Positions 1-17,553 of a stretch of DNA of 25,706 bases are shown in pieces. Positions within the stretch are counted from its first letter, which is position 1; every line of letters starts with the position of its first letter. The notes under the pieces were generated by a model. That model was not told the origin of the DNA. It worked only from the letters and a program-made list of their open reading frames with translations, and searched no databases. The position numbers and the translations under genes are program-made. Where the stretch lies: positions 1 through 25,706 of IMG/VR virus record IMGVR_UViG_3300014656_000117. One strand, 5' to 3'. The DNA is from a virus. Lineage: Duplodnaviria > Caudoviricetes.

Positions 1-9
1 AGATATATA

Positions 10-276: not shown

Positions 277-298
277 CTCATCACCTCATTCAAAACTA
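271..298. repeat. 28-bp direct repeat copy 1 (RBS/start of the 10..276 gene)
   Basis: tttcatctcatcacctcattcaaaacta; 27/28 identical to 602..629. Confidence 0.9.
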
Positions 299-325
299 CT
301 ATCCCCACCACCATAGCCACTACCC

Positions 326-607: not shown

Positions 608-629
608 CTCACCACCTCATTCAAAACTA
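602..629. repeat. 28-bp direct repeat copy 2 (RBS/start of the 326..607 gene)
   Basis: tttcatctcaccacctcattcaaaacta. Confidence 0.9.
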
Positions 630-636
630 TTTATGT

Positions 637-1317: not shown

Positions 1318-1969
1318 TAACTTTCTCCTGCTTGAATTCCCTGGCCTTATCCATCCAGTTTGTCAATGCTGACTTTGGGCGCTTTAACTTCCGGCTACCC
1401 TCTGACCAGTAGAGGTGAAATTTCTTTAGTTCTTTATCATAGTCGAGGTCTGTATATTGTGGCCGTAGTTCCTCAACGTATTCATCAAATTTAGATTTTG
1501 TAATTTCAGGAGAGGTGGCCTTCTCCCTCTCCTCCTCTTTAACTTTATCTTTAACTTTAACTTTAACTTTAACTTCGCCAAGAGTTTGTCTATCATTACT
1601 CTTGCGTAGCTCTTGCGTAGCTCTTGCGGGATTTTCTGGTATTACACTCGGAGACTCCCTGTCAAGTGCTGATTTTGTCTGGTGATTTAAGAAGTTAGGG
1701 AACTCTAAATAATCAAAACCATTAACCGAATATCGAACGCACAATTTCAAATTGACAAGTGATTCTATTGTTTTGCTCACCTTTTTCAATGTGTGTGTTG
1801 TTCGGGGAACAACAATTCCTTTAATTATAAAGGGGTCTGCCGGTATCCTGCCCTCTTTATCGAGGTGTAATATTATCCAGGTATACAGTAACCTTTCGGC
1901 CTCATCAGGCAAGTAGGCAACCTTATCATCGGTAGATATTTCCCTACTAATGAATCTACCTCTAGGCAT
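1202..1969 (-). CDS. phage replication initiator / replisome organiser
   Basis: MPRGRFIS..ERLLYTWIILHLDKEGR winged-helix-type N-terminus, FPNFLNHQ, VKVKVK linker, C-terminal ELKKFHLYW..ALTNWM helical domain; upstream of DnaC-like gene. Confidence 0.8.
   Translation of the reverse strand: MPRGRFISREISTDDKVAYLPDEAERLLYTWIILHLDKEGRIPADPFIIKGIVVPRTTHTLKKVSKTIESLVNLKLCVRYSVNGFDYLEFPNFLNHQTKSALDRESPSVIPENPARATQELRKSNDRQTLGEVKVKVKVKDKVKEEEREKATSPEITKSKFDEYVEELRPQYTDLDYDKELKKFHLYWSEGSRKLKRPKSALTNWMDKAREFKQEKVNGKRQRNFGPEKVYTELPLPKSITDTNDEEFERLIRTD
1537..1575. repeat. AT-rich 6-bp tandem repeat (tttaac)n encoding VKVKVKVKDKVK
   Basis: tttaactttatctttaactttaactttaactttaactt read directly. Confidence 0.85.
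1599..1628. repeat. 11-bp tandem repeat (ctcttgcgtag x2.7), candidate iterons of an intragenic origin
   Basis: ctcttgcgtag ctcttgcgtag ctcttgcg inside the initiator gene, next to an AT-rich repeat. Confidence 0.7.
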
Positions 1970-2270
1970 GAATATTAGCTCCCTTAGAACGGTTACACTT
2001 TCGGCATAATAAAGCTAGATTATTTTTGTCATCTGTGCCACCTTTTATGACGGGAATAATGTGGTCAATCTCAAAAGGTATAACATCATTCCCGTTGTAG
2101 AAATATGCTTTTGATAAATCAACACAATTTGGATTTTCAACGACACAAGGTTTGCCATATCTTAAAATAAAGAATCCTTGCTTCCCACACAATCTACAAG
2201 CGCATTTATCTCTTGTTATCACCTCTGAGGTCGTGCCGAGCCGTAAAGATGCTCCATTTCCTCTAGCCAT
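1962..2270 (-). CDS. HNH endonuclease
   Basis: RDKCACRLCG ... EIDHIIPVIKGGTDDKNNLALLCRKCNRSKG. Confidence 0.93.
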   Translation of the reverse strand: MARGNGASLRLGTTSEVITRDKCACRLCGKQGFFILRYGKPCVVENPNCVDLSKAYFYNGNDVIPFEIDHIIPVIKGGTDDKNNLALLCRKCNRSKGANIHA

Positions 2271-2401
2271 TATGCCCTCTCCTTATTCCAATATGGGGAT
2301 TTGCATCTGGCACACCTGAGAGGCTTGCGCTTCTTACTGTCCCACAAATGACCGCATTTCTTACATTTAATCCTAAAGTAAGTTATTTTTCTGATAGCCA
2401 T
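2270..2401 (-). CDS. 43-aa zinc-ribbon microprotein (not in the ORF track)
   Basis: Manual translation MAIRKITYFRIKCKKCGHLWDSKKRKPLRCARCKSPYWNKERA*; two CxxC; TAATG overlap with the HNH start. Confidence 0.85.
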   Translation of the reverse strand: MAIRKITYFRIKCKKCGHLWDSKKRKPLRCARCKSPYWNKERA

Positions 2402-2407
2402 ACCCTC

Positions 2408-2436
2408 AGTGTACACCTCGCATAGTCGTTTGTCAA
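2408..2436 (-). promoter_or_regulatory. sigma70-type promoter, probably leaderless
   Basis: TTGACA-17 bp-TACACT-gagggt-ATG. Confidence 0.8.
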
Positions 2437-2670
2437 GTCCTTTTTCCCACTATTTCAGGGGGTGCCGGTAAAATTGGTTATTGCTTCACCCATTCCTCGC
2501 GCTTATCGAATGGCACGATATAAACAGCCCCGGTGAGTTTCACCCCTCGAACTCTCATTCAGCCAGCCCTCGCCTACTATGGACACTCCACCATCGGCTT
2601 TTCATGCACGCCCAAAGCAGTTTAGTTACCATCAGCTTTACCACTTCAACTCTTTTCCAGAGTTCCCTCA

Positions 2671-2694
2671 GCTCAGGCTGCTTGCTGGCTCGGT
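2671..2694. repeat. 24-bp intergenic repeat copy 1
   Basis: gctcaggctgcttgctggctcggt; 22/24 identical to 4327..4350. Confidence 0.8.
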
Positions 2695-2710
2695 TCTGCT
2701 TCGCCAGACC

Positions 2711-3340
2711 TTATTTATTACTGTGACATTCGTAGCATAACCAATTAACATCCAATGGCTTGTCAACTTTTACAAAGGAATATTTGAAATCCCAATTCTT
2801 TTCATGTGAGCCTTTGCCATTGATGCTATCATAGAGTGCAAAGTAGGCTGCTTGTGGTGTGTCAAATGCTATGCCATCTTCAGCAGTCCAGTAGCACCCA
2901 CCAGCAAATATAATTCCCTCAAGTAAGCAATCCTCTGGTGTAATGTCTTTTGTTCTCTCAGCCCTTACGTCTGTTATCTTGATGAAGTATCGGGCTGTCT
3001 CAAGAGGCATAAACATTGCTGACAATATATCCCTTGACCATCGCCATTTTAGGCAGTCCCCAATGGTTTGATTGATAAATACGGGAGTTTCGTCTAATAC
3101 ATAGCCCGCCTCATTCAAATATGGGTGCCGGAATAAAGTCTCTTTGATATACACAACCTCACCCACTTGATAGCGTGGCTTGAATTGTTCACCTTGTGCC
3201 GTACATGGGAATTGCGCATCGCTTGTATAATGGAAGTGCTCAGGCTGTGGCTTAATCACCCTGCGTGTTTGCCAGTCTCTATCATAGCCACCATCAGCAA
3301 TCGCCTTTATCTTCCAGGGTTTGAACAGTATCCCTTTCAT
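2711..3340 (-). CDS. phage ASCH/PUA-like protein (ILF...QTRRVIKPQP family)
   Basis: KGILFKPW.IKAI, QTRRVIKPQP, PRYQVGEVVYIKET, AMFMPLETARYFIKITDVRAER..DITPEDCLLEGI motifs. Confidence 0.8.
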   Translation of the reverse strand: MKGILFKPWKIKAIADGGYDRDWQTRRVIKPQPEHFHYTSDAQFPCTAQGEQFKPRYQVGEVVYIKETLFRHPYLNEAGYVLDETPVFINQTIGDCLKWRWSRDILSAMFMPLETARYFIKITDVRAERTKDITPEDCLLEGIIFAGGCYWTAEDGIAFDTPQAAYFALYDSINGKGSHEKNWDFKYSFVKVDKPLDVNWLCYECHSNK

Positions 3341-3341
3341 A

Positions 3342-3521
3342 TCATTCCCCCTTCTCTAACTTATTGAAATACACTGCTAGGATATGGTTGACGGCTGCCG
3401 GGACTGAGCCGAGTCCCAGGCGCATAGCTTCCCTTTCTAATCTTGGAATGTGGTCACTGTTGATGCGCCAGCCGGTCTGTACCTTGCCCGGCTTTACGGC
3501 GCCACGAACTTTAGCACCCAT
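3342..3521 (-). CDS. ribbon-helix-helix DNA-binding protein (59 aa, start revised to MGAKV)
   Basis: VQTGWRI beta pattern followed by two helices (LEREAMRLG, SVPAAVNHIL); purine-rich RBS AAAGGGGG before ATG 3521. Confidence 0.6.
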   Translation of the reverse strand: MGAKVRGAVKPGKVQTGWRINSDHIPRLEREAMRLGLGSVPAAVNHILAVYFNKLEKGE

Positions 3522-3630
3522 AATTTCCCCCTTTCTTTTTCGGCTTAAAGCATATAATAAGGGCAAAAGTCACCGCGAGCAGTAATAGGTAGAAGGCCGT
3601 TCCGGCAAGCACCAGTGCATAGATTACCAT
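3511..3630 (-). CDS. 39-aa single-pass membrane peptide (not in the ORF track)
   Basis: MVIYALVLAGTAFYLLLLAVTFALIICFKPKKKGGNYGC*; hydrophobic stretch followed by a basic tail; weak RBS. Confidence 0.45.
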   Translation of the reverse strand: MVIYALVLAGTAFYLLLLAVTFALIICFKPKKKGGNYGC

Positions 3631-3648
3631 TTCGACAATCCACGCACG

Positions 3649-3680
3649 AAAGTCACAAAAAAGGCACAGAAAAAGTCACA
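3649..3680. repeat. three phased 9-bp direct repeats AAAG(T/G)CACA
   Basis: copies at 3649, 3660 and 3672; a further AAAGTCAC at 3566. Confidence 0.6.
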
Positions 3681-3770
3681 GGCGAAGCCTCTCAATATCT
3701 TCTTCGCTGAACTTGGCCAGTATTTTATTCTGTACCTGCTCATCAATTTTAGTAACCATCTTATAATCAT

Positions 3771-3799
3771 AATATACACTTCCGCTTACTATTTGTCAA
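3771..3799 (-). promoter_or_regulatory. sigma70-type promoter
   Basis: TTGACA-17 bp-TATATT in an intergenic region. Confidence 0.8.
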
Positions 3800-3832
3800 G
3801 CCCCCTTACAGTGACTAGACTTAAAACTGATG

Positions 3833-4057
3833 TTAGTTTGATATTAAGAATTTACCTACAAGGCGACCACCAGCACAGATAACGCCATCTACCGGGGTAT
3901 CAAAGAATACTTCAATATTCCGCGACATCAAGTGCTTTCTTGCCTCTTGGCACACCCTCCCTGCTATCTCGAATTCATTGTGTCCATACTCTACCTCAAT
4001 CTCTCCATTAAATCTGTCTCTGCCTACATCTATCAATTTTACTTCCAATTTATCCAT
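3833..4057 (-). CDS. hypothetical phage protein
   Basis: 74 aa, GGAGG RBS. Confidence 0.75.
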   Translation of the reverse strand: MDKLEVKLIDVGRDRFNGEIEVEYGHNEFEIAGRVCQEARKHLMSRNIEVFFDTPVDGVICAGGRLVGKFLISN

Positions 4058-4069
4058 CCTTTCCCTCCA

Positions 4070-4420
4070 TATCCACAGTGAACACTAGGTTTCACCTGGC
4101 CGTCTTTAATCGGTAGGATTGTCATAATGCCCTTTTTATCCAGGTGAGCAGGGGCTGGTGAGCCTTATGTACCTCACCATAAATCCAGCACTATCAAGAA
4201 CACCCCCGCTCCCTGCTTGACCTGAGCCTACATGGTTATACGCCTTACTTCGTTCCTTTTACCTTGGGCTGGATAGCGAACAGGCAAAGTCTCTATTCTC
4301 CAAACCTTCTTCCAGCACCTTCGTAGGCTCAGGCTCCTTACTGGCTCGGTATTCCTCCCCCTTGTGAACCGATACTTCGCTAACTTTCATAGCTTGGACA
4401 CCAGCAATCTATATTGTTAA
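4070..4420 (-). ncRNA. candidate structured non-coding RNA / cis-regulatory element
   Basis: ~350-nt gap with nested inverted repeats: 4221-4231/4323-4333 (11 bp), 4092-4099/4140-4147 (8 bp), 4147-4153/4211-4217, 4156-4162/4173-4179. Confidence 0.4.
4327..4350. repeat. 24-bp intergenic repeat copy 2
   Basis: gctcaggctccttactggctcggt. Confidence 0.8.
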
Positions 4421-4423
4421 CCG

Positions 4424-5806
4424 TTATGCCATGTCCAGCAAGTCCTGAATCTCTTTGGCAAATAGAGCTGCCGTCTCTTTGTTGAGCAGCTTGGCAGCTT
4501 CGGATACGCTCTTGGCCTGGCCGCCGGTGACAATATTGAGACGCGCCAGCACTTCTTTGTTTGTCCACTTGTCCAGCTTCAAAGCCTGTAGCTGCGTGAG
4601 TGATTCCTTTAGCCAGTCAAGGTCTATGAAGCTGGCCATCTCGAGGCCCGGCTCCTGCCGGTCAGTCTCTTCGGTGAAAATCCCCGGCTCTTCCGGTTGC
4701 TCGGCTACCGCTGCACTCAGCGCTTTGCCTTTGCACCAGACCTTCTTACCAGCAGAACGACCGGTGCCCTCTACCTTATTCGGGCAATAGGGCGGGAAGT
4801 TACCCTTTCCCCTTACTAAGGGAACGTTGTGTATCGGGCAGACGCCGAGGTCGTTTTGCTCTGGCTTATCATCTGAGAGTTCTCTAGATTCACCCTCGAT
4901 TATCTCACCGGTTGAAGTGTTCACCTTGCCGACATCTGGCACTTCAATCTCCATATACTTTTCGTCCACCACTTCGATATTCGGCGGCATCTCACCAGGG
5001 TATTGCCTATCAAGAGCTAATCTCTCGGCCCGGATGCAGGCCATATTTAGATGCGTGTTGCCCTTTTCTGTGCCTTTGATACTTGCGTTTTTCTCGATAC
5101 CTCGGAGACCGAAAGCCTCGGCTCCGGTCACTGTATCCTTAATCCACACAAAGCCATAGACACAATTGGGGTCAGCCGTGTCTCCGAGTATCTTTTCAAT
5201 TTCAGCTTTGGTGGCTTTCCTCGGCGTCATATCAAGGTAGGAGTAACTGTGCTTTCTCTGTGCCAGAAGTCGGGTAGCCCCGATGCCCTGCTGTATTGAC
5301 CAGTCGAGGACGTCTTTACCTTGGCCGTCTTTTACGAATTGGCCATTTACCTTGCGCCGGTAGCCCACTAGGTAAAGGTGCTTCATCAGCGGGTTGAGCT
5401 GATAAGTCTGGCATAAGAGAATACACTTGGTCTTCTCGATTGCCGGAGCGGGGCCCCAAAGAGTCTCGACAATCTCAGTGGCCACACTCTTCGTCATAAC
5501 GACGCCACCACCCGTGTATCTGCTTAGTGCCTTGGTCTTTTCTTCTCCGTATGATTGTTCCATGATTTCCCTCCTTCTTTCTATTGTAAATTCTGCCAGA
5601 CCGCCCTTTTCGTAGCGGCTGGGCTCGCGCTCGATGCCGTCATGTCCTGTTCTTCGCCAATCAGAGCAAGCTAGGAAAGCTAAGTGGTTATCGAAGTCCA
5701 GAAAAACATCCAGCCTTTCACCGCATACTGAGCATCTATTCTTACGGCGAAGCTCCTTCAGGTCTTCCTGGGATACCCTCCCTTCTTCTTCATAGATTGG
5801 TGACAT
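4424..5806 (-). CDS. RecT/Bet-like single-strand annealing protein with N- and C-terminal Zn-finger-like segments
   Basis: LLCQTYQLNPLMKHLYLVGY and NMACIRAERLALDRQYP resemble RecT/Redbeta core motifs; TSTGEII acidic linker; CSVC and CPIH..CPNK..WC clusters. Confidence 0.7.
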   Translation of the reverse strand: MSPIYEEEGRVSQEDLKELRRKNRCSVCGERLDVFLDFDNHLAFLACSDWRRTGHDGIEREPSRYEKGGLAEFTIERRREIMEQSYGEEKTKALSRYTGGGVVMTKSVATEIVETLWGPAPAIEKTKCILLCQTYQLNPLMKHLYLVGYRRKVNGQFVKDGQGKDVLDWSIQQGIGATRLLAQRKHSYSYLDMTPRKATKAEIEKILGDTADPNCVYGFVWIKDTVTGAEAFGLRGIEKNASIKGTEKGNTHLNMACIRAERLALDRQYPGEMPPNIEVVDEKYMEIEVPDVGKVNTSTGEIIEGESRELSDDKPEQNDLGVCPIHNVPLVRGKGNFPPYCPNKVEGTGRSAGKKVWCKGKALSAAVAEQPEEPGIFTEETDRQEPGLEMASFIDLDWLKESLTQLQALKLDKWTNKEVLARLNIVTGGQAKSVSEAAKLLNKETAALFAKEIQDLLDMA

Positions 5807-5807
5807 A

Positions 5808-6959
5808 TTACCTCGCTCGGTTCGACATGAAGGGCTTATTGACGAACCTAACTCCTGGGACTTCTTTTTTATCGTGGTACTTCTTGGCCGTGTTACCCAA
5901 TAAGACGGTGTCAGCCATCATATACTCTCGCGGGATTAAATCAAGATTCGTGATTTCAAAAGTCCAATGGTCCGTGAGTCCTGAGCTTCCAAGTGCCGTT
6001 TTTATCGATTTGGGGGCCTCTGGCATCACTTCCATGAGGTCGAGTGGGGCGGTAAGTTCTCCCTTCAAAGCCATCTCGGCCTCAGCAGCCTCCATGCGTT
6101 GCTGGTTTATCCGCTCTTGCTCCGCCTTGATTCGGGCTTGCTCGGTGAGGTAGGCCGTCATCTTTGCGCGGGTGATTTGGTCGGCTTCAATAACCGGTCC
6201 CATGATGAAAGTGTAAGTCTCTCGAATAGCGTCCGATTGGGCCTTTAGCGGGTCAAGAAGTTCCTTACGTCTCGCTTCCATGAGCTTCTTGAGTTTCGAG
6301 ATAAGGCTGAGGTCATCGCTGGCCAGAGCGTGCTCCTCAGCGTTGGTAACTTTCCTGGCATTGGCATAAGCTAGGGCATTGAGGGCTTGGACGTGCCAGC
6401 TCATGGCTTCGGCATCAGCACCTGGCCGGAGGGCTAGGGCTGTCTCTGGTGCTGATTCCTTTAGCAATGATTCCGTTATTGTTATTGGTTCACCGATATT
6501 GTCCGGTAGGCATCCTGGGATTGGCTCTGTCGCTTCAACCATGGCGCTCCATGCTTTCTCGGTATCGGTCTTTACTATTGACCCCGCTGGTATCGTCTTG
6601 ACCTTGTCCTTGAAGGCTTCTATCTCAGCACAGGGCACGTCAATGGCGCTTACCTTTGCTTTGGCATCACCCCACTTCGCCGGCACCATAACGATGTCGC
6701 CCACTGCCAGGGGCTCCTCCGTGTAGTAAGAATATTCTCTCTCGCTTAACTTCCCGGTGGTCTCAGAATAGTATTGAACCTTGACAATAGATAATGGCGA
6801 CTGTAAGGCGTCCTCACTCAAGCGGGCCTCGTACTCGTCCATAGCGGTAGAGACGGGGGCGTTGGCCACATCCCGGGCCGTCTGGGCCTTAGCAATGCAC
6901 TGGGGGCAGCCCCCTCCTTCCAAGGGGTCAAACTCTACATTGTGTCGTGCGCACTTCAT
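5808..6959 (-). CDS. phage coiled-coil protein associated with the recombination module (Gam/Gp157-like C-terminus)
   Basis: EARRKELLDPLK coiled coil, then WTFEITNLDLIPREYM...EVPGVRF; internal YSYYTEEPLAVGDIVMVP beta domain. Confidence 0.6.
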   Translation of the reverse strand: MKCARHNVEFDPLEGGGCPQCIAKAQTARDVANAPVSTAMDEYEARLSEDALQSPLSIVKVQYYSETTGKLSEREYSYYTEEPLAVGDIVMVPAKWGDAKAKVSAIDVPCAEIEAFKDKVKTIPAGSIVKTDTEKAWSAMVEATEPIPGCLPDNIGEPITITESLLKESAPETALALRPGADAEAMSWHVQALNALAYANARKVTNAEEHALASDDLSLISKLKKLMEARRKELLDPLKAQSDAIRETYTFIMGPVIEADQITRAKMTAYLTEQARIKAEQERINQQRMEAAEAEMALKGELTAPLDLMEVMPEAPKSIKTALGSSGLTDHWTFEITNLDLIPREYMMADTVLLGNTAKKYHDKKEVPGVRFVNKPFMSNRAR

Positions 6960-7147
6960 AGTATTACTTCCTCCTTTTTGGATATTTCCTCTAACTGCTG
7001 TGACAGCTTATCCTTACCGAGCACTATAACCCGTGTGCCCACCGGCGTTTCTGCCAGAATAACGCACTGGCCTTGTTCGGTAACCCTCTTGATAGTCTCC
7101 ATGATTGCCTCGCGCTGTTTATCTGCTTTGCGCTTGAATAGTCTCAT
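6956..7147 (-). CDS. hypothetical protein (start revised to MRLFKRK, 63 aa)
   Basis: GAGGA RBS before ATG 7147; ATGA overlap with the downstream gene. Confidence 0.65.
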   Translation of the reverse strand: MRLFKRKADKQREAIMETIKRVTEQGQCVILAETPVGTRVIVLGKDKLSQQLEEISKKEEVIL

Positions 7148-7148
7148 T

Positions 7149-7334
7149 TTACTTATCCTCTTGGAATCTGATAGAACATAAACCGCAGTTCTCAATAATA
7201 TTTATGGCTTCGGCTTTGTTGAAACTGCCATCCGGCTCATTCAGGGAGACCACAGCATCTATCCAGTTGAACCCACACTTAGGGCAAAATGCCTGTCCCT
7301 TTAGACTTTCCTTAACCTCTTGTGATATTGGCAT
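7149..7334 (-). CDS. small zinc-ribbon protein
   Basis: 61 aa, CPKCG...CGLC; GGAGG RBS. Confidence 0.7.
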   Translation of the reverse strand: MPISQEVKESLKGQAFCPKCGFNWIDAVVSLNEPDGSFNKAEAINIIENCGLCSIRFQEDK

Positions 7335-7524
7335 TGACTATCCTCCTTCCCCTTTTATACTCTTTTATCAGTTTACCCTGGGGGTCGAGTAGTTTTAGCT
7401 TTCGCCTTGTTACTTCATTCTGCATGACCAGTATGTTAGAGTTGGGGCCTGACCACCTGATACCATCATCATTTAATGTCTGGGTGCGATACATATTGTG
7501 AGTGAACGGAATTGTCATTGCCAT
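7312..7524 (-). CDS. hypothetical protein
   Basis: 70 aa, TAAGGAGGT RBS. Confidence 0.7.
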   Translation of the reverse strand: MAMTIPFTHNMYRTQTLNDDGIRWSGPNSNILVMQNEVTRRKLKLLDPQGKLIKEYKRGRRIVNANITRG

Positions 7525-7649
7525 TTTCAGACCTCCTTAATACTAGACTACTAATTCGCCCTTAAACCTGTCAGAAACCTATTGTAGCAATTCTGGTGGT
7601 ATCTTGGCGGGTAGCCCCATGATAGGTTTCTGATGCTTAGTTCCTATTT

Positions 7650-7805
7650 TCATTTCTTACCCCCATGACTTCTCAAGCCAAGTCTAATTGCCCAGTTCAA
7701 CCATTTATTTATTGACCACCCCCTCCGCTTGGCTCTCTGGTTTATCCAGTCAGCTATATCATCAGGTATCCTGACTGTCTTTACTGTGGTGTTTTTTGTT
7801 GGCAT
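7650..7805 (-). CDS. Arc/Mnt-like ribbon-helix-helix regulator, 51 aa (not in the ORF track)
   Basis: MPTKNTTVKTVRIPDDIADWINQRAKRRGWSINKWLNWAIRLGLRSHGGKK*; RHH pattern; AAAGGGGG RBS; first gene after the promoter. Confidence 0.8.
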   Translation of the reverse strand: MPTKNTTVKTVRIPDDIADWINQRAKRRGWSINKWLNWAIRLGLRSHGGKK

Positions 7806-7835
7806 CTATCCCCCTTTCTTACTTGGGTATACCCC

Positions 7836-7865
7836 ATATTACCACAGTAAATAGGCATATGTCAA
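7836..7865 (-). promoter_or_regulatory. sigma70-type early promoter
   Basis: TTGACA-18 bp-TAATAT with TGn extension, just downstream of a terminator. Confidence 0.75.
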
Positions 7866-7926
7866 GTCTTTTTAGACCTATTTCGACCTGCTCTCTAAAA
7901 ATAGTATACCCCTTAAAAAAGGAAAT

Positions 7927-7960
7927 AAAAAAGACCCCCTCTCCGGTTAAGGAAAGGGGT
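7927..7960 (-). terminator. intrinsic terminator ending the structural/lysis operon
   Basis: minus strand ACCCCTTTCC-TTAACC-GGAGAGGGGGT followed by CTTTTTT. Confidence 0.8.
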
Positions 7961-7979
7961 AATCTTCATATTATATACT

Positions 7980-8177
7980 TTAAGGGTCGTGTTGTGGCTT
8001 ACAATGCTTCTCATGGCATGAAACTAGCCAGCACGTTCTTTTCTCTCTAACTAATTCCAGGTATCTTAGCCATGCGGCACCGCCGGCATGTCCAAAGTCC
8101 TCTACTCTCTCCCAGATATGGAACCAGTGGACATACCACATCCTACCAGGTCCATATCTTGATACTGAATGACACAT
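7980..8177 (-). CDS. hypothetical Cys/His/Trp-rich protein
   Basis: 65 aa, TAATG overlap with the protease gene and GGAGG RBS. Confidence 0.55.
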   Translation of the reverse strand: MCHSVSRYGPGRMWYVHWFHIWERVEDFGHAGGAAWLRYLELVREKRTCWLVSCHEKHCKPQHDP

Positions 8178-8611
8178 TAACCTCCAAATAATACAGTGTG
8201 TGCTTTATACGAGCCATCCTCAACGGGAATAAAGTCCCCTGATTGAGGCTCAAAATATATCAGGCCATCTTTATGCACTAGCAGGTTAAATCCGTGCTCC
8301 CCCCAGGGTGACTTACCTATGGCTACCCCACAAGTATTGAGCTGGTATCTCTCGCTTACCCGGGCCGATACTAACATAGCAAAGTTCTCGCAATCAAACT
8401 TGTCTACTGTATATTTCGGCATACCAAAGCAAACGTCTTTCAATACCTTGCCCCAGTCCACAAGGGATATGAACCAGTAATTGTAGTCCCAGATGTAGGA
8501 CTTCTCCAAGCCTAGAGGCTGTAGCATAGCCGAAAACTCAGTTGCGCTTATCTGATACTCTTTTGGCTTTGTTAGATGTTCAATCGGGGGGTTAAACTTT
8601 AATCTACACAT
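8177..8611 (-). CDS. papain-like cysteine protease related to the MOA (Marasmius oreades agglutinin) C-terminal domain; putative lysis enzyme
   Basis: FDCENFA, GEHGFN and YFEPQ match the Cys-His-Glu triad motifs of that domain. Confidence 0.75.
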   Translation of the reverse strand: MCRLKFNPPIEHLTKPKEYQISATEFSAMLQPLGLEKSYIWDYNYWFISLVDWGKVLKDVCFGMPKYTVDKFDCENFAMLVSARVSERYQLNTCGVAIGKSPWGEHGFNLLVHKDGLIYFEPQSGDFIPVEDGSYKAHTVLFGG

Positions 8612-8614
8612 TGC

Positions 8615-8854
8615 TCAGCCGCCTATTACAACATGGGTTATGCTAGCATCAATAACACCGAGACCGATTAACAGAGAAATCAGTGAGGCTAGGGTTATCT
8701 CCAGGCGGGTTAATCGCATGTCCCTCTTTGCCCCGTTGCCGTTTATCTGCTCAAGGTGTTTCTCCTGTGATTCGGTACGCTCATCAAGCCTCTGTACAGT
8801 ACCATACATTTCAACAAGTATTTCATCTCTTCTTACTGGTGTCAGTCTTGCCAT
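8615..8854 (-). CDS. XhlA/holin-like membrane protein (start revised to MARLTP, 79 aa)
   Basis: coiled coil (VQRLDERTE..HLEQING..RLTRLE) plus a C-terminal transmembrane helix; GAGGAG RBS. Confidence 0.65.
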   Translation of the reverse strand: MARLTPVRRDEILVEMYGTVQRLDERTESQEKHLEQINGNGAKRDMRLTRLEITLASLISLLIGLGVIDASITHVVIGG

Positions 8855-8978
8855 CTTGTTTCTCCTCATAGTCATTAGCTGTCTTCAATATTAAGGGGGT
8901 GAAGGTTGTAAACCCACACCCTATGCAGACTCCGGCTGAGTCGGGGTTTATCTGGTTACATTCTGAGCAGACCTTCAT
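8823..8978 (-). CDS. 51-aa zinc-ribbon microprotein (not in the ORF track)
   Basis: MKVCSECNQINPDSAGVCIGCGFTTFTPLILKTANDYEEKQDGKTDTSKKR*; CxxC-x10-CxxC; TAATG coupling; GAGGT RBS. Confidence 0.7.
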   Translation of the reverse strand: MKVCSECNQINPDSAGVCIGCGFTTFTPLILKTANDYEEKQDGKTDTSKKR

Positions 8979-9220
8979 TATTTACCTCGCCACAGCGAGA
9001 TAAAGAATCTATATAAGACTATCAGTGAAAAGGTAAAGATAGTTGATGACAGGCCGAACTCAAACATTATCATGTGCTTATCAGGGTCAATCAAGTGGAT
9101 AGAACCGCCACTATGATAAAGAGCAGCAAATACCCAGAGTTGGAATCCAGCCGACAATGCGAATAGAACTAGAACTGATAGCGTAAAGAAAAATTTGCTT
9201 GGCTTATTATCTTCACTCAT
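8978..9220 (-). CDS. two-TM membrane protein, holin candidate (probable start MSEDNK)
   Basis: two hydrophobic segments and a basic C-terminus; follows the tail gene. Confidence 0.55.
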   Translation of the reverse strand: MSEDNKPSKFFFTLSVLVLFALSAGFQLWVFAALYHSGGSIHLIDPDKHMIMFEFGLSSTIFTFSLIVLYRFFISLWRGK

Positions 9221-9236
9221 AACATTCGTCCTTACC

Positions 9237-11996
9237 CTAATGTAATTGCTCATCAGAATAGGTAGATACTGTGGGGGCACCAGCCACTATAGCAAACCTG
9301 AAATACCAGTTTACTGGAACTATAAAGGTAAATGGCATACGGACTGATGTAGCTCCAGATTGAGATAGTCTGGCTCTTATTGTAGTAGGAGCAGTGGTGC
9401 TATCCATCTGAAATGAAACCTGGTCTCCATCCGCAAGTACAACAGTTATCGTCTGTACCAGGAGCTTACCTGTCGTATTCTGATAAATAGTATTAAGTGC
9501 TCTGACTGTTGAAGCTACAGCTATGGTAACAAGTTCTACCGCCCTTGCTGCATCGGTGCTACCAACAGTAGGAGCAGCCAAGTTAATGACCTTTGACACA
9601 TTCATATCCAGGTTGCCGCCAATGTCAAAGTCATGCATTTGTCCTCCAGCAGTTATCGGTACATTCATGTTGCCAGCGACTATAGGAACTCCATTCGTAG
9701 TGTCCCTGATATTATGACCATTGACCTCTAAGGCAGCACCTAGCTGTGGGGATAAGTCTTCTACTATGTTTTGCAGACTGCTAGCCGTTATAGCAGCATC
9801 AGCCTGTGTTTTAGTATAATAGGGTAGTAGTGCTGTGGGTATCTGCTCATCGGCAGGCACTTCACCTTCAAGCCAGCCCAGACTAGTAACTATTTCATTA
9901 TATAGCGCAACCAAAGCTCCCAAACCTTTATCTCCCCATAACTCGTCAATGGCAGCTTCCACCCACTTCATACCTGTCAGTTCTTTTGCATATTCACCTC
10001 TGCCATATAGCCAATCAAGTTGATCATCTACTATCTCAAGGCTGGGCTTAATCATGCCCCATTTTAAGATTTGCTCTTCCGTAGTAGGTTCTGGTATCGG
10101 CTCCCTTTGTAATAACGAAGGTCTTGTCCCAGGAACACCTTTAAGGGCAACCCCACCAAAGCCAAAGTCCATTCTCCAAGTAGTCCCAGGCTTATATGAC
10201 CGCCTGATAGAGCCGAGGTTTCCCGTCCTGGTATCGCTTTGCCTGCTGTCAGTAACCAAATCATAGTCAAACACTTCAGCGCCAAGGTTCATTGGAACAG
10301 AGGCACTACCTCTTTGGGCTGCTACCTCTAATCGGGAAATCATCGCCGTTGCTATGCTAATGCCTTGAGCATCGCTGATTAGACTAGTTCTTATGTAATC
10401 GCTTATAGGCAGTAAGGCGAAACTTGTTGCACTGGTGAACGTACCCGAATACTCAGTCTCATCTGTCTTCAGAGATGTAACAACAACGCGGTTAGGAATT
10501 ACTAGAGCTTCACGGATTGCCTTTGAGAAGAACACATGACCCGCCGTAAGTGAATACTCAGAGTCGTAAACTGTTCCCGATGTTACTGGCACGAACACAT
10601 GAATCTTGCCGTCTGCCTCTACACGCTTCTCGCACCCTGTATAACCAAGTAGCTGGTTTATCTTATCAAGGCGGCTCTGCCCCTCGTAAATCCTGAAAGC
10701 ATCCTTTGGCAGGTAAACATCAAGGAGAGGGTCTTCAATAGTATAAGCATCACCGGTGTCCCACTGGTTATCTCCGCCACCGGCCAGAGCAACTACGGTG
10801 GCAGTCGTGGCGTCATTATCCGTGACAGTACCAGAACTTCCATCGGTAACATTGTAAATTATCTGCCCGATTAACGCATCAGTCTTAAAGGCAGCAGCAG
10901 AGTCAGTCAGTATAGTTGCATGGATTCCGGCAGTGTGCGTCCCATGTGGGTCATAGACAACTTCGTAGGCTTCGCAATAAGTCTCAGGCCCAGTACCCCT
11001 CGCCCAGCAGTCGATTCCAGCACCGGTGTATTTGTAGCGGTACAAACAGTCAAGGTCAGTATATTCCACTACCCCACCATTAACCTTCACAAGCCACTCA
11101 TCAGGTTTTACGGCAACCGAACTATAGGCGACTTGCACATAGTTGCCTGCATCACCATCAGTATATTCGCAGTAAATCCAGACACCACCAATCCATTCTT
11201 TGGCCACACCATCCCAAGTCATCTCCTCGTCTATTGCTGCTGATGCGTCAAAGGTTGCTTCCCTCCAAGTGCCTACACCATCGAGAGTGTTGGCGTTACC
11301 CCAAACCTTTGTAAGTAGAATAGCCTGTGGAGCCTCAACCTGCCTCACGACAAAGGTTATATCACCTGCTGGGGCACCTGATTTCTTTAACATGAAGGAC
11401 AACTTGGTAACTGTCCTGGAAATAGAAAGTCTTTGCCCTGCGGCGTCTAGCGTATTATCAAGGTTAATGTAGCTTATGCCTGCAACGGCATTATAGTCCT
11501 CTTGCTTTTCCGTTAGTTCTACCGCGACTGGTTCCCCATCGGCTATCTCGGTAAGCATGGACTTGACTGTCTTGGTGTCCGACCAGTGGTGGAAGTAATC
11601 TTTACTCGCCTTATCCTCTGCAAGTCGATTCGGTATTCCAATCAGGGAGAACTGACATTGCAAGATGCCTGGCAACGAAGACAGATTTTGAGATAATACT
11701 TTCAGTGGCGCTACAGCAGAATACTCATTCCCGATTGACGTAACAAGCCCCCACTCAAAAACTGCATCCCAACCCTCCAGGTTAAGGGCAGTAAAGTAAC
11801 CATCTGAATTATGGCAAATTACCTCGACAGTCTGGCTATCCGATGTCTCTTCATGTGATGGTATGCTCAAGATTCGGTCATGCTCAACGACAACATTAGC
11901 CGCTATAGCAAGGGGGTCGGAGAAGGTAATGCGTATTAAAGGGTCAATGACAGCAGCCTCCATCGCAGTTTGTAATGTTCCTGGAAGTGTCCTCAT
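9237..11996 (-). CDS. large multidomain tail/baseplate-type virion protein with fibre-like C-terminus
   Basis: 919 aa beta-rich; EDLSPQLGAALEVNGHNI and VINLAAPT..DAA fibre-type motifs; C-terminal RALNTIYQNTTGK..TFIVP tail-tip-like domain; position at the end of the structural module. Confidence 0.7.
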   Translation of the reverse strand: MRTLPGTLQTAMEAAVIDPLIRITFSDPLAIAANVVVEHDRILSIPSHEETSDSQTVEVICHNSDGYFTALNLEGWDAVFEWGLVTSIGNEYSAVAPLKVLSQNLSSLPGILQCQFSLIGIPNRLAEDKASKDYFHHWSDTKTVKSMLTEIADGEPVAVELTEKQEDYNAVAGISYINLDNTLDAAGQRLSISRTVTKLSFMLKKSGAPAGDITFVVRQVEAPQAILLTKVWGNANTLDGVGTWREATFDASAAIDEEMTWDGVAKEWIGGVWIYCEYTDGDAGNYVQVAYSSVAVKPDEWLVKVNGGVVEYTDLDCLYRYKYTGAGIDCWARGTGPETYCEAYEVVYDPHGTHTAGIHATILTDSAAAFKTDALIGQIIYNVTDGSSGTVTDNDATTATVVALAGGGDNQWDTGDAYTIEDPLLDVYLPKDAFRIYEGQSRLDKINQLLGYTGCEKRVEADGKIHVFVPVTSGTVYDSEYSLTAGHVFFSKAIREALVIPNRVVVTSLKTDETEYSGTFTSATSFALLPISDYIRTSLISDAQGISIATAMISRLEVAAQRGSASVPMNLGAEVFDYDLVTDSRQSDTRTGNLGSIRRSYKPGTTWRMDFGFGGVALKGVPGTRPSLLQREPIPEPTTEEQILKWGMIKPSLEIVDDQLDWLYGRGEYAKELTGMKWVEAAIDELWGDKGLGALVALYNEIVTSLGWLEGEVPADEQIPTALLPYYTKTQADAAITASSLQNIVEDLSPQLGAALEVNGHNIRDTTNGVPIVAGNMNVPITAGGQMHDFDIGGNLDMNVSKVINLAAPTVGSTDAARAVELVTIAVASTVRALNTIYQNTTGKLLVQTITVVLADGDQVSFQMDSTTAPTTIRARLSQSGATSVRMPFTFIVPVNWYFRFAIVAGAPTVSTYSDEQLH

Positions 11997-11998
11997 AT

Positions 11999-12358
11999 TT
12001 AAGCCTCTAGCAGTGTGTACTCAACATTGCAGATTCCTGTGTCTGCTATGGCATAGACTGTGGCACTGTTATGACGATAAAGAGCAAACTCCCCGGCATT
12101 TATTCTAATATCATAAACCCCGGTTGTAGACCCAATTCGCACATAGTTTGTAGTATCGAGGTTTTTGATAAGCATATATCCTGGAGTTGCCAACTCTAGC
12201 CCTTGCGCTATCTCTTCCTCAGCAGCAAAACCTATTGCTTGGATACCGCTAGTATAAGCATCCCCAGCGACAGTAACCTTTTTGGTATACTGCCTGGAAA
12301 CCGTAGCACCACCTTTACTGAAATCAAGGTTAACTATCAATGAAAGTTCGTTGGCCAT
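11999..12358 (-). CDS. putative virion structural protein
   Basis: 119 aa beta-rich (GYMLIKNLDTTNYVRIG..IRINAGEFA); AAGGAGG RBS. Confidence 0.7.
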   Translation of the reverse strand: MANELSLIVNLDFSKGGATVSRQYTKKVTVAGDAYTSGIQAIGFAAEEEIAQGLELATPGYMLIKNLDTTNYVRIGSTTGVYDIRINAGEFALYRHNSATVYAIADTGICNVEYTLLEA

Positions 12359-12373
12359 ATTTCCCTCCTTTTA

Positions 12374-13204
12374 CTAATCCGTTGGATAAGTCCGATAGGT
12401 CCTGGGCTTCGTCATTCGTTTAAGGTCTCTCTGGTATAGAACGAGTTTATTGTTCCCCCAGGTTTGATAAGAGTTAATGACACCGGAGATTGACAACCTG
12501 CTCGTCAACTCTCTGGTAAACCCTTGAGACTGAGCCAAGTAGCCACTGTTGGCGTTCCTAATTTCTCCCCCTGCCTGGTTGATGTAGTCTCCTAAAGGAT
12601 TACCACCAACGTATATCTTATTGAATCCCAAGTCTCGCCCACTACTTAGGTCTTCTATTGCCTGTCCTACCCTACCCGACATGGCACTAACGGCGATATT
12701 GATGTCTTGGACTCTAATAAGGGCTTCCCTTACCTGGTCTTTAATCTTGTTTACCCAGCCTAGTGAAGCCTTAGCCACAACCCCTGCTACCAGAAGGCGT
12801 TGAAGTTGAGGAGACAGGGTATTTACTACCTCAGTTAGTTGATGCACCTTATGGCAAAACAGGTAGATGTCCTCGTCAGCAGTAGGCTTGGTATCAATGT
12901 CAATCGTCAAGGTAGTGCCGAATACAGATATATTCCTGAAATCACGGGGGTCATTATCTATTGGAAACTCAACCCTGTCCACTTCAATCAAGTCCTCAAT
13001 AGTGCTAATATCCAAATCCCTTGAGGCTGCTGTGGTCAGTTCCTCCTTGACTTCATAAGGTATCCGTTCTGATATTTCAGTCCGAACATCATCGATATAC
13101 AGGTCAAGTTCATCATCTGTGAAGTCCTGCTCAGAGCCTTCGACAAACTCATCATTGAGGAATTGCCTGATAATAGTTCTTACTTCGGTTAGTTCTCCTG
13201 CCAT
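12374..13204 (-). CDS. head-tail adaptor/connector protein
   Basis: N-terminal LTEVRTIIRQFLND...FTDDELDLYI helical motif typical of adaptor proteins; position in the module. Confidence 0.65.
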   Translation of the reverse strand: MAGELTEVRTIIRQFLNDEFVEGSEQDFTDDELDLYIDDVRTEISERIPYEVKEELTTAASRDLDISTIEDLIEVDRVEFPIDNDPRDFRNISVFGTTLTIDIDTKPTADEDIYLFCHKVHQLTEVVNTLSPQLQRLLVAGVVAKASLGWVNKIKDQVREALIRVQDINIAVSAMSGRVGQAIEDLSSGRDLGFNKIYVGGNPLGDYINQAGGEIRNANSGYLAQSQGFTRELTSRLSISGVINSYQTWGNNKLVLYQRDLKRMTKPRTYRTYPTD

Positions 13205-13212
13205 AATTCACC

Positions 13213-13383
13213 TCACTCTCTGGCTTTCTTGCCAGTCGGCTCCCAGCCTGTCTCCTTTATTGCCCTCAGTAGATTCAGTTGCCTCTGAGCCTTTATCCTA
13301 CTATCGTGAGTTCCTTTGACATCTTTGGTTGAAGTATTTAAGACCACGAATTTCCCATTTCTCTCCTCGATTGCATAGGGCAC
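13213..13383 (-). CDS. 56-aa small phage protein (GTG start; not in the ORF track)
   Basis: MPYAIEERNGKFVVLNTSTKDVKGTHDSRIKAQRQLNLLRAIKETGWEPTGKKARE*; TAAGGAGGT RBS. Confidence 0.8.
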   Translation of the reverse strand: MPYAIEERNGKFVVLNTSTKDVKGTHDSRIKAQRQLNLLRAIKETGWEPTGKKARE

Positions 13384-13394
13384 TTGACACCTCC

Positions 13395-13856
13395 TTATAA
13401 TACACTCGGATGATGGTAAACCTTAATGTTTAACGTACTTGTACCAATACTGTCTGCCACCTCACCCTTGAAAACACTATTAGCTGGTATCGTTATCCCC
13501 TGTATCGGAACAACAATGGATGAGTTTTGCACACCACCTCTTGTCATACTGGCAAAAGCCCATTCGGTATCATCTGCTCCGTAGGTAAACCGAATAGTAT
13601 AAGAAGCATTGGCACTCATGCCGCTAATACTGATATGCTTAACATTATAAGCATATGCGATAGTATTGATTGGTATTATCTCCGTCAGAGTTCCATATGT
13701 CCACGCAGTACCATTTGCAGGCAGGGTTATTGGCAGAGCCAAGCTAGGATAAATATCCTGCTTCGAATGTAACTCCCCCAATACTAGAGCAGCCAAAACT
13801 GCTGCGTCATCTACTGAAATCTGCACCCTTTTTAATTTCCCAATCAAGTCTATCAT
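13395..13856 (-). CDS. putative virion structural protein
   Basis: 153 aa beta-rich, TAATG-coupled. Confidence 0.7.
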   Translation of the reverse strand: MIDLIGKLKRVQISVDDAAVLAALVLGELHSKQDIYPSLALPITLPANGTAWTYGTLTEIIPINTIAYAYNVKHISISGMSANASYTIRFTYGADDTEWAFASMTRGGVQNSSIVVPIQGITIPANSVFKGEVADSIGTSTLNIKVYHHPSVL

Positions 13857-14566
13857 TACGGATACCCCAATCTGTAAAGTAATCTATGTTCGTCTGCTGT
13901 TAAAGCCCTTGACCATGCTCTAGGACGGTGGAATTTAGCCTTAAACCAGTTCATATCTTCTGTATATCTGCATCCGATTCTAAAATCATCAACAAGGCTG
14001 GAAGCAGGGTCTTGCAACGGCCCACCTATTGTTGCAATCGGCACTCCATCCCGATAATGATAAGCGTTAGCCCCAATCCTTGAATAACTGAATAAATGCC
14101 ACTCGCCTGGAGTCCACCCCAAAGAATAAGTGGCTGTCCTAGTCCCTCCATGGTGATGTCTTACAGTTATAGATTCAGCAGCCCCGATTTTAGTTACGTA
14201 GACTTCCCACCCTCTTGAATCCACCACATACTTGCCCATCATAATTTGAGATAATCCTGTATCAGTCCAATTGAACCACATTGCTAAACTGTAATCGGTG
14301 GTGGTGAAGTTCAGGTTAGTGCAATCCGCAGCCGGTATATCAAGAAACTGGTTAGTGTTGAGAGTCGGATATATAGCATTGATACTCAAACCAAAATTAC
14401 CCACTGCCAGTTGTTGCCATAACGGAACTCCAACAGACGAGTGCATCGTCGCCATGCTGTGATTCTTGGACTCGTCATGGACAAATAATCCATTGGCCTC
14501 CAGCATTGAGAGGTCGAGTTGAATGTCCTCATTGAGTGCTAAACTGTCATAATGTGTAGCTGGCAT
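13856..14566 (-). CDS. LamG / concanavalin A-like beta-sandwich virion protein
   Basis: VHDESKN, DYSLAMWFN, GEWHLFSYSR...YRDG, DFRIG, RAWSRALTADE motifs. Confidence 0.85.
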   Translation of the reverse strand: MPATHYDSLALNEDIQLDLSMLEANGLFVHDESKNHSMATMHSSVGVPLWQQLAVGNFGLSINAIYPTLNTNQFLDIPAADCTNLNFTTTDYSLAMWFNWTDTGLSQIMMGKYVVDSRGWEVYVTKIGAAESITVRHHHGGTRTATYSLGWTPGEWHLFSYSRIGANAYHYRDGVPIATIGGPLQDPASSLVDDFRIGCRYTEDMNWFKAKFHRPRAWSRALTADEHRLLYRLGYP

Positions 14567-15096
14567 TATATCTCATAATGCGCGTCCCAGGGATAAGCCC
14601 GGTTCGTGCCTCCAGTTTTTTCAATGGTAACTGAAACTCCGTACCTGTTAGGACTTAGTTCCACCTTAATCATGGGTGGAGATATCACCCCGATATATTC
14701 AACCTCGTCAACCAGTAGAAGACCGGCGCCTCCCGGGGCGTTGTCATAATACTCACGCACGACGATAGTTTCCGTGGCTGTTTGTGCCGTACAGTTTATC
14801 ATGACGCATATCGGTCGGTACTCTCCGAGAGGGGTGGAATTGATATAGACGTTCTGCTCAGTACCATCCGTTGTTACCGTCCCGCCTGTTTCTGATAGAG
14901 TCGGTAAAGCATTAGTGACTGCCAGAATATCAGTAACGTCTGCCTGAACCAGCACCACGTCAGCATCCAAGTCTGCGACATCAAGCAATAACTGGTCAAC
15001 ATCTAACTGCATGGCATCAACAGCAGCTTGCAGAATAACGATAACCGCTAAAATAGCAGCATCCCAATCTATATCATAATGAGTTCTGACTGCCAT
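14566..15096 (-). CDS. putative virion fibre/decoration protein (coiled coil plus beta domain)
   Basis: heptads LQAAVDAMQLDVDQLLLDVADLDADV followed by a beta-rich domain. Confidence 0.65.
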   Translation of the reverse strand: MAVRTHYDIDWDAAILAVIVILQAAVDAMQLDVDQLLLDVADLDADVVLVQADVTDILAVTNALPTLSETGGTVTTDGTEQNVYINSTPLGEYRPICVMINCTAQTATETIVVREYYDNAPGGAGLLLVDEVEYIGVISPPMIKVELSPNRYGVSVTIEKTGGTNRAYPWDAHYEI

Positions 15097-15471
15097 CTAA
15101 ATACCCTCACCTAAACGGTCGATTCGGTAAGTCGCCTGGCTATCCGCAACTTCAGCCTTTCCCTGAAGTATCATCCGAGCATAAGACCTGTTATAGAGAA
15201 ACTCAGCCACCTCACCTGCTGCCAATACTGTCTCTGCTACCTTCTCATCCTGCACAGGGTCTTGAGTGTCCTTAGATACAGCAAGAGACATCTGTGTTAG
15301 GAGTTTATAGTGCAGACCATTTAAGGCATGGGTATTCTTCAGTAAGATGCTCTTCCTTGACATGGCTTGAGTAATCCAGTCCATAGCATCAACATAGGCA
15401 TTAGTGGTAGTGCCTGTTAGTTTTCTCCAAGCCGCCCACGGCTCTATGGTAGACCTTACCTCTTCTCCCAA
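15097..15471 (-). CDS. putative virion structural protein
   Basis: 124 aa, TTG start, tightly packed in the operon. Confidence 0.6.
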   Translation of the reverse strand: MGEEVRSTIEPWAAWRKLTGTTTNAYVDAMDWITQAMSRKSILLKNTHALNGLHYKLLTQMSLAVSKDTQDPVQDEKVAETVLAAGEVAEFLYNRSYARMILQGKAEVADSQATYRIDRLGEGI

Positions 15472-15482
15472 TGTCTTACCCC

Positions 15483-15728
15483 TTATTTATGCGTTCTTTG
15501 ATGACTTTTCAATCCGAGAAGCGATTTACACTCTCTACCACATACATTGCACACAAGGTCTGGTGTAGAGGGTGTTACACCCGTCTCAGTGGCTCTGGTA
15601 GTGGGTTCAGGTAAGAGTTCTCGCCACCTGCCCGATGTTAAACAATCGGTGCATACAGGTTTCTTCTCTCCCCAGCCTCCATCCATCAGACGTGCTGTTT
15701 CATTTTTATTACATACTGCACAAAGCAT
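15483..15728 (-). CDS. small protein with a CxxC/CxxC treble-clef-like segment and a C2H2 zinc finger
   Basis: CAVC..CTDC and CNVCGRECKSLLGLKSHQRTH; AAGGAGG RBS. Confidence 0.8.
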   Translation of the reverse strand: MLCAVCNKNETARLMDGGWGEKKPVCTDCLTSGRWRELLPEPTTRATETGVTPSTPDLVCNVCGRECKSLLGLKSHQRTHK

Positions 15729-15811
15729 AATTTAGTCCTCCTTCTTTTCCAGTGGGCGGGGGAGTTACCCCCCAACCCACCTTTAGGAATGATGCCTGCC
15801 GAGTGGGCAGG

Positions 15812-16225
15812 CTATTTCTTTACCATCTTGATGAACTTCATTAAAGCCAGCAAGACAGTTGGCTCAATATTCAACTCTATGGTAGAGGGTATTTCAACCA
15901 CATCAAGCACGATTTCAATTTCCTTTGACATCAGTTCATTATATTCTGAAATGAACTTTACGGCTTGAGGATTCTCAACCATCTTTTTGTTGTCGTCCTC
16001 TATCATAGGTTGTGGCGGTCGTAGCTGTCGTGGATTTTCGGGGTCGGGTGCACCATAGGTTTCAAACAATCCCTGGCGAACCTGCTCGATAATTCTTACT
16101 TGAGGGTCAAGTTTAGATGCCAGAACTGCCAGCCCATAGCTGACTGCAAATGGTGGCTTTTCCGCCAGCAGTTTCTGAAGTGGTTCCTTTGCACTAAAGA
16201 TTTCTCCGCTTGTTAGTTTCATCAT
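15812..16225 (-). CDS. DUF1617-like phage protein (possible fibre chaperone)
   Basis: KLTSGEI..LQKL...VSYGLA...EQVRQGLFETYG...EYNELM..EIEI pattern. Confidence 0.6.
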   Translation of the reverse strand: MMKLTSGEIFSAKEPLQKLLAEKPPFAVSYGLAVLASKLDPQVRIIEQVRQGLFETYGAPDPENPRQLRPPQPMIEDDNKKMVENPQAVKFISEYNELMSKEIEIVLDVVEIPSTIELNIEPTVLLALMKFIKMVKK

Positions 16226-16283
16226 TCCCTCCGTTTATTTATAGTGGGGGCTAGTTAAAGCCCAGCCCCCGAAGGCTTGAAGT

Positions 16284-17525: not shown

Positions 17526-17553
17526 TTTATGTGTCCTCCTTTCTTAGATTTTC

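Follow-up and report, generated by a model that had tools for sequence, protein, structure and literature searches.

A stand-alone MOA-type papain-like domain at the lysis position of a tailed phage with a probable Dehalococcoidia host

Described systems nearest to the locus

The fungal agglutinin MOA is a mushroom defence protein, and LapG, a calcium-dependent periplasmic protease of the LapG/BTLCP type, cuts a surface protein and is a chromosomal regulator of adhesin release. In MOA the C-terminal domain is the protease and dimerisation domain and not the sugar-binding one (accessible text of PMC4764322 and PMC8244254). The same text of PMC8244254 gives C215, H257 and E274 as the catalytic residues, together with Q276 and W208, makes the backbone of Gln211 a metal ligand, states that activity requires Ca2+ or Mn2+ and the dimer, and superimposes calcium site A of MOA on that of LapG. 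Viral Cys-His enzymes that open a non-murein wall are also on record: the pseudomurein endoisopeptidases PeiW and PeiP open the walls of methanogens (PMC10791045, accessible part). Pyrobaculum filamentous virus 1 (PFV1) lyses its archaeal host with long cuts; according to the text available from bioRxiv 2020.01.16.907410, PFV2 is without PFV1 genes 28-30, two of which (29 and 30) are called 'lectin-like'.

The stretch of DNA analysed here, called the window throughout, is part of the genome of a tailed phage (25.7 kb; 25,706 nucleotides) and carries nearly all of its genes on the minus strand. Its terminal cassette shares with the holin-endolysin cassettes of tailed phages a place at the end of the late operon and small transmembrane (TM) genes beside a soluble hydrolase without a signal peptide. 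It differs in that its enzyme belongs to no recognised class of peptidoglycan hydrolase (no Pfam or PHROG match to one), the TM proteins match no holin family and no spanin was seen. Judged by its genes, it would work like a holin-endolysin cassette but departs from one in the class of its enzyme.

That enzyme, a protein of 144 aa, most resembles MOA and PSL1a (PDB 2IHO, 3PHZ; PF18021, PF18022), with which it shares the fold (Z 13.8 and 13.0), the Cys-His-Glu residues, an equivalent of Gln276, an aromatic residue at Trp208 and acidic residues around the Cys. It differs from them in standing alone, the ORF having no room for the N-terminal ricin-B lectin domain, in carrying Tyr for Trp208, and in Pfam scores (22.3 and 18 bits) that fall under the curated cut-offs. 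Its place is among MOA-type domains, not among the chimerolectins. LapG offers the next-best fold (Z 7.4), but its identity to the window protein is 11% and it is not a lysis enzyme. PeiW is only weakly alike in structure (Z 4.8); the window protein is without pseudomurein-binding repeats, and PeiW and PeiP belong with another host group. The PFV1 protein A0A140F3M5 is likewise stand-alone and is the best viral structural match (E 6.6e-9, TM-score 0.73), but identity is 22% and the virus is filamentous.

The cassette and its enzyme

Five tightly coupled ORFs, placed as the original prediction had them, lie on the minus strand between the last tail gene and a terminator-like hairpin:

9237-11996, minus: last tail gene, 919 aa, preceding the cassette
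8978-9220, minus: 2-TM protein, 80 aa, a holin candidate by size, topology and position
8823-8978, minus: zinc-ribbon protein, 51 aa, CxxC/CxxC (Pfam Zn_Ribbon_1, E 0.0018, below cut-off)
8615-8854 (to 8875 from the ATG at 8875), minus: protein of 79 aa (86 aa from that ATG), soluble coiled N-terminal part and one C-terminal TM segment
8177-8611, minus: stand-alone MOA/PSL-type papain-like cysteine protease by homology, 144 aa (Pfam Agglutinin_C/Lectin_C_term)
7980-8177, minus: ORF of 65 aa, GGAGG upstream, overlapping the stop codon of the protease gene
7959-7936, minus: intrinsic-terminator-like hairpin (9 bp) and T-run, closing the late operon

Hairpin-plus-T-run sites of this kind numbered 3 against 1.7 in shuffles, so this hairpin by itself does not rise above chance. 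An upstream GTG start would lengthen the 80-aa protein to 100 aa. The earlier label 'XhlA/holin-like' agrees with the topology seen here, but neither of the window's two TM proteins matches any Pfam or PHROG family, holins included. PHROG gave no family match to any gene of the cassette. An architecture like that of the 79/86-aa protein recurs beside homologues of the protease. No homologue of the 65-aa ORF or of the zinc-ribbon protein was found in the fetched loci; the sole match to the latter was the window's own contig, and it is probably the product of an accessory gene.

The gene order of the window runs from a giant protein through a scaffold-like protein, a P22-type coat (Pfam E 4e-45), adaptor-like and tail genes and the cassette to a RecT-like gene, replication genes and a DnaC-like gene. 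The genome is incomplete: the ORF of the giant protein runs off the contig end, and the genome record consists of this contig alone. A RecT-like protein identical to the window's also sits on a contig of 32,310 bp, which puts the unseen part of the genome at about 6.6 kb or more. Thirty window proteins were scanned: none matched a terminase or portal, and none matched an amidase, muramidase or M15/M23 peptidase in Pfam or PHROG, in keeping with the earlier statement that the window has no recognisable peptidoglycan hydrolase. The giant protein (20370-25706, minus; over 1,778 aa, truncated by the contig end, no Pfam or PHROG match) is likely to be an internal ejection protein. It has counterparts in two complete phages: one of 2,127 aa in G002, and one in G001 that measures 1,382 aa and includes a radical SAM domain. 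Small plus-strand ORFs at 19541-19958 and 20095-20340 (HNH-like, zinc-finger-like, 81 aa) break the late operon and separate the giant-protein gene from the scaffold-like gene.

The motifs FDCENFA, GEHGFN and YFEPQ had been read as the Cys-His-Glu domain of MOA, and a comparison of an AlphaFold model with MOA had been proposed as the check. The match to MOA is confirmed. A phmmer search of the PDB with the 144-aa protein gave MOA and PSL1a as the only matches under E 0.01, the best at E 4e-5. The AF2 model (pLDDT 88.5, 48 sequences) matches MOA and PSL1a in Foldseek at E 8.8e-10 to 7e-8 with TM-scores of 0.66-0.71. VIA-align superimposes 120 residues on MOA at rmsd 2.6, and the hits that follow MOA, PSL1a and LapG are protein-glutaminase (6.5), transglutaminase-like folds (about 6), PeiW and NlpC/P60 (4.5). 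In register with MOA are C74 (Cys215), H106 (His257), E121 (Glu274), Q123 (Gln276) and Y67 (Trp208). The protein is a stand-alone papain-like domain of the MOA type whose Cys-His-Glu triad is intact, and we infer that it is proteolytic. It contains no hydrophobic segment (highest Kyte-Doolittle 18-mer 0.97) and neither a signal peptide nor a TM segment. Residues D42 and D73 and the acidic or amide residues at 75-76, which we take to be the equivalents of MOA's metal ligands, are conserved in its family. Because MOA needs Ca2+ or Mn2+ and the acidic D42, D73 and E75 are conserved, activation by calcium may be expected by analogy.

The family, its hosts and its neighbours

A profile search with an E limit of 0.001 returned 1,498 representatives (50% identity); among the best 150, lengths of 120-210 aa predominate. 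Of 304 aligned members with lengths of 115-215 aa, 297 keep the whole triad. By residue, C is present in 304, H in 301, E in 291 (with D in a further 9), Q in 276, D42 in 301 and D73 in 302, the figures for D73 and Cys74 being partly selected since up to about 90 of the 304 were found through a motif containing D-C. Unlike the window protein, 7 of 150 representatives and 8 of 68 viral clusters have an N-terminal TM segment. The family is seen mostly in uncultured viruses, and the ESM Atlas clusters closest to the query are mostly labelled viral. Two member loci, L213 and L229, have halophile-type proteomes (D+E 18-19%), and L229 carries a best match to Halogranum tailed virus 1 (HGTV-1). Five queries found no family match among 50,697 deposited phage records; PFV1 was also missed, being absent from these or too distant. 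Members occur too on the chromosome-like contigs L007, L076, L094 and L097, and the one in L173 sits among secreted or tail-region genes.

Single viral proteins are already auto-named 'Agglutinin C-terminal domain-containing'. A literature search, mostly of open-access text without supplements, gave no description of a MOA-type family in viruses, of lysis by Dehalococcoidia phages or of splice-less endonuclease inserts of the kind described below. The Pfam names 'Agglutinin/Lectin C-terminal' would mislabel viral proteases as lectins, and the 'unique' fungal MOA domain gains a large viral family.

The signals for a Dehalococcoidia host, as originally proposed, come from several directions. Dehalococcoidales account for three of the five GTDB loci, the other two being contigs of 2.4 and 6.6 kb in proteobacterial bins, and the gene is carried by only 3 of 301 Dehalococcoidia genomes. 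Window DNA resembles a 33.6-kb phage contig, without host flanks, binned in the Dehalococcoidales genome G004 (69% over about 950 bp). The C-terminus of the 919-aa tail protein resembles that of the last tail protein of a prophage in genome G060 (34% over 79 aa, pairwise E 2e-8), and the RecT-like protein has one named Dehalococcoidia homologue, at 42%. A search for prophages in host genomes, also suggested at the outset, led to this same prophage, which ends in the same kind of cassette. Genome G060, one of the three carriers among the 301, is a closed Dehalococcoidia chromosome of 1.52 Mb in a single contig, and the whole prophage lies beside rpsF/rpsR (contig C1, about 1003400-1037730; loci L099 and L100). 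About 34 kb long, siphovirus-like and apparently intact, it runs from a serine recombinase and repressor through terminase, portal, S78 protease, capsid and tail to a terminal cassette of a 71-aa 2-TM gene, a 179-aa gene that is permuted-papain-like by eye, an 82-aa coiled gene and the MOA-type gene; a toxin-antitoxin-like GNAT pair follows on the opposite strand. Its protease gene and neighbours recur in the IMG/VR records L116 and L181.

According to the accessible text of bioRxiv 2021.08.23.457424, Dehalococcoidales lack peptidoglycan synthesis and the wall of D. mccartyi is S-layer-like. In line with this, neither a PBP transpeptidase nor FtsW/RodA was found in the five carrier genomes, whose completeness is unstated, against 10 of 14 controls. 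The sequence likenesses are a good, though indirect, link of the window to this class, and its host is probably a peptidoglycan-less Dehalococcoidia bacterium. Positions 1-20000 of the window, searched against 401 Dehalococcoidia genomes, gave phage-gene matches in two and no spacer-like match, a search of low sensitivity for spacers. The coat protein matched 3 of 401 genomes at 31-36%, which is uninformative for the host. Mur_ligase_C was dropped as a peptidoglycan marker; it has one match in each of five genomes and matches in Haloferax as well, and the match is probably FolC.

The gene was expected to travel with small membrane genes, and it does so in two sets of loci, in which genes and TM segments were called with simple custom scripts. 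The close-relative set holds 88 loci, the window among them, in 69 clusters at 90%, and includes 80 of 101 metagenome matches. Of its 57 evaluable clusters, 32 have a TM gene of 35-135 aa as the next gene downstream and 25 have none there; among 77 control genes, 1 has such a neighbour. For a TM gene on either side, the count is 18 of 33 clusters. The distant viral set came from two motif scans of viral contigs (134 loci; with L114 added, 95 of 135 were true members), of which 91 members with a called gene at E under 1e-5 form 68 clusters at 70%. In it a TM gene is downstream in 23 of 62 clusters against 10 of 131 controls, and on either side in 26 of 60 against 20 of 131. The Fisher p values for downstream enrichment (3e-14 in the close set, 2e-6 in the distant one) overstate it, because the clusters are kin. 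The gene in L048 follows the tail with no TM neighbour adjacent.

The TM partners are of several unrelated-looking sequence types. Among 68 scanned, two match PHROG holins (E 8e-6 and 2.5e-5) and three more do so weakly, so that only 5 of 68 match any holin family at E under 0.05; the neighbouring membrane proteins are putative holins. In L011, a Dockerin/EF-hand gene with a C-terminal TM segment (515-910), a calcium-binding partner, lies between the protease and a 2-TM gene. A permuted papain-like gene of the YiiX/C92 type recurs beside the MOA-type gene in seven loci, one of them by Pfam match (L135, E 5.8e-6) and the others by eye (L006, L028, L052, L053, L055, L096); it may encode a second envelope enzyme acting, for example, on lipid anchors.

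Mutual exclusion with classical endolysins had also been named at the outset as a point to check, and it held in part. Phages G001 and G002, complete by terminal repeats, encode no peptidoglycan hydrolase among 102 proteins of at least 70 aa, and the G060 prophage has none save a sub-threshold Transgly match (E 0.001) in an immunity-region gene. In nine further records at 97-100% the scan covered the 271 proteins that are 105-420 aa long and have no more than one TM segment, the last 0.2-3.6 kb lying outside it in four of the records; eight are without such an enzyme and one, G336, has an RlpA-like DPBB_1 domain. A recognisable peptidoglycan hydrolase is thus missing from 11 of 12 near-complete carriers. 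Against strict exclusion, the partial carrier G318 encodes Amidase_3, and the cassette of the partial carrier G310 also holds a phage lysozyme, four genes further downstream, with a small TM gene and a C92 gene after it. Four endolysin families were found in 2 of 32 carriers and 3 of 16 control records, a weak control of records that match the motif by chance, which does not discriminate. Exclusion of canonical endolysins is a tendency and not absolute. Dehalococcoides DET1070 is annotated 'endolysin, putative' (PMC5102406, accessible part).

Nine homologues (P0115, P0156, P0159, P0193, P0202, P0215, P0264, P0265 and P0266) carry an in-frame LAGLIDADG endonuclease, some with a winged helix. 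Homing elements invade conserved active-site codons, and in all nine proteins the insert (144-259 aa) sits between the conserved Asp and the catalytic Cys, starts with Cys and is followed by Cys; the flanks belong to different sub-lineages. None of the nine shows the Hint features sought (an HN/HQ end, or TxxH in the first 90 residues), nor does a Hint family of Pfam match any of six inserts scanned. In the model of P0265, which has a pLDDT of 88.1 with low values at the two junctions, about 200 columns align with I-DmoI and with the endonuclease domains of inteins; the endonuclease spans residues 81-272 of an insert at 77-284, so there is no room for a Hint domain. The insert resembles a homing element, which might be tolerated as a looped-out domain, leave at the RNA level as an intron, or be taken out by the very enzyme that hosts it. 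A DNA search for endonuclease-bearing alleles found 12 loci, which are endonucleases of other genes.

Possible roles of the enzyme

We favour the reading, to which we give a little under an even chance, that the 144-aa protein is a released and probably calcium-activated protease that opens a protein (S-layer-like) envelope for phage exit. Late in infection it would accumulate in the cytoplasm in a soluble, metal-free and inactive form. The small TM proteins of the cassette would then open the membrane, and the lesion would expose the enzyme to external calcium, allowing it to take up the active MOA conformation and cut the envelope or its anchors. An S-layer-like protein coat is the substrate that this scheme would predict, and the enzyme may assist release rather than being required for it. 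On these terms the family offers a small soluble lysis candidate with a named catalytic residue, and the intact prophage in a closed Dehalococcoidia chromosome offers a setting in which to study such lysis; both bear on phage control of dechlorinating cultures and on subsurface Chloroflexota.

A far broader reading, which we regard as possible but doubtful, makes the MOA-type family the shared exit enzyme of viruses of protein-coated, murein-less hosts in both domains (Dehalococcoidia phages, haloarchaeal-type tailed viruses and PFV1). It would be a calcium-switched S-layer lysin released by holin-like proteins, and the protease domain of fungal MOA would have its prokaryotic origin here. Selection on it would be so strong that a splice-less homing endonuclease has colonised its catalytic codon and is tolerated or removed by the protease itself.

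The evidence also admits other roles for the enzyme. Membrane proteins alone might lyse thin-walled hosts while the protease merely trims the envelope, clipping receptors or S-layer debris and so freeing progeny or blocking superinfection. The related phage contig G004:C21 (L276, 7230-8441) has modules in common with the window, and after its tail come three small TM genes, with neither an evident enzyme nor a family member; G310 keeps its member beside a true lysozyme; some members have an N-terminal TM anchor, G002 has two paralogues and chromosomal copies exist. Such an accessory role is nevertheless unlikely in our estimate, as a near-invariant active site, a cassette position that recurs despite changing TM partners and invasion by a homing element all fit a commonly selected function.

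We consider it less probable again that the protein is an amide hydrolase of a new kind, acting on cross-links or anchors of the envelope (peptidoglycan stems, isopeptides or lipoprotein anchors), an unrecognised endolysin like the CHAP, NlpC/P60 and PeiW enzymes. Many cell-wall amidases have papain-like folds, genes of the permuted papain-like C92 type recur as neighbours, and some carriers encode peptidoglycan hydrolases, so that their hosts likely have peptidoglycan. In structure, however, PeiW and NlpC/P60 score far below MOA and LapG, which cut proteins; the best-placed hosts are without PBP and FtsW, and the family is unmatched in deposited phage records.

To a virion-associated enzyme (a maturation protease, a cross-linking transglutaminase or an entry enzyme, placed after the tail as a structural accessory) we assign the same low probability as to an amide hydrolase. 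The gene often stands right after the last tail gene (L001, L039, L048, L077 and the second copy in G002), protein-glutaminase and transglutaminase-like folds score about 6, and in L020-type loci it sits among many N-anchored membrane proteins. But the virions concerned are of unrelated types (podo-like G001 and G002, siphovirus-like G060, L020-type, PFV1), G060 and G320 have an S78 prohead protease of their own, and in G001 and G002 the position shifts to just before the terminase.

Very improbable is an inactive passenger or a sugar-binding 'lectin', a reading that the Pfam names Agglutinin_C and Lectin_C_term and the label given to small PFV1 genes might suggest: the triad is nearly always intact, and we rejected the lectin reading on the ground that the matched domain is the protease and dimerisation part of MOA and not its sugar-binding part.

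Several loci show further features beside the family. Members in L063, L064, L071 and L074 are flanked by genes that by eye are glycosyltransferase-like and methyltransferase-like, a non-lysis setting that may point to surface modification. Klosneuvirus KNV1 has a stand-alone structural homologue (A0A1V0SJY7, BFVD; E 1.9e-7, TM-score 0.74), which on this structural match is a possible bridge to eukaryotes. Phage G002 is a complete temperate phage with the gene order of the window; of its two paralogues (L091 3002-3505 and L092 4707-5087), one has an N-terminal TM segment and precedes the terminase and one is soluble and follows the tail, and the phage also encodes an S-adenosylmethionine decarboxylase gene. 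The L020-type element (L020 3275-6285; also L004, L005, L013-L015, L017-L019 and L026) is rich in small N-anchored membrane proteins and carries Avd-like, reverse transcriptase and DUF6273 genes (a diversity-generating retroelement) and a DUF5679 gene. It may be a tailless membrane-containing virus of Dehalococcoidia, and its copy L004 lies in a Dehalococcoidales bin.
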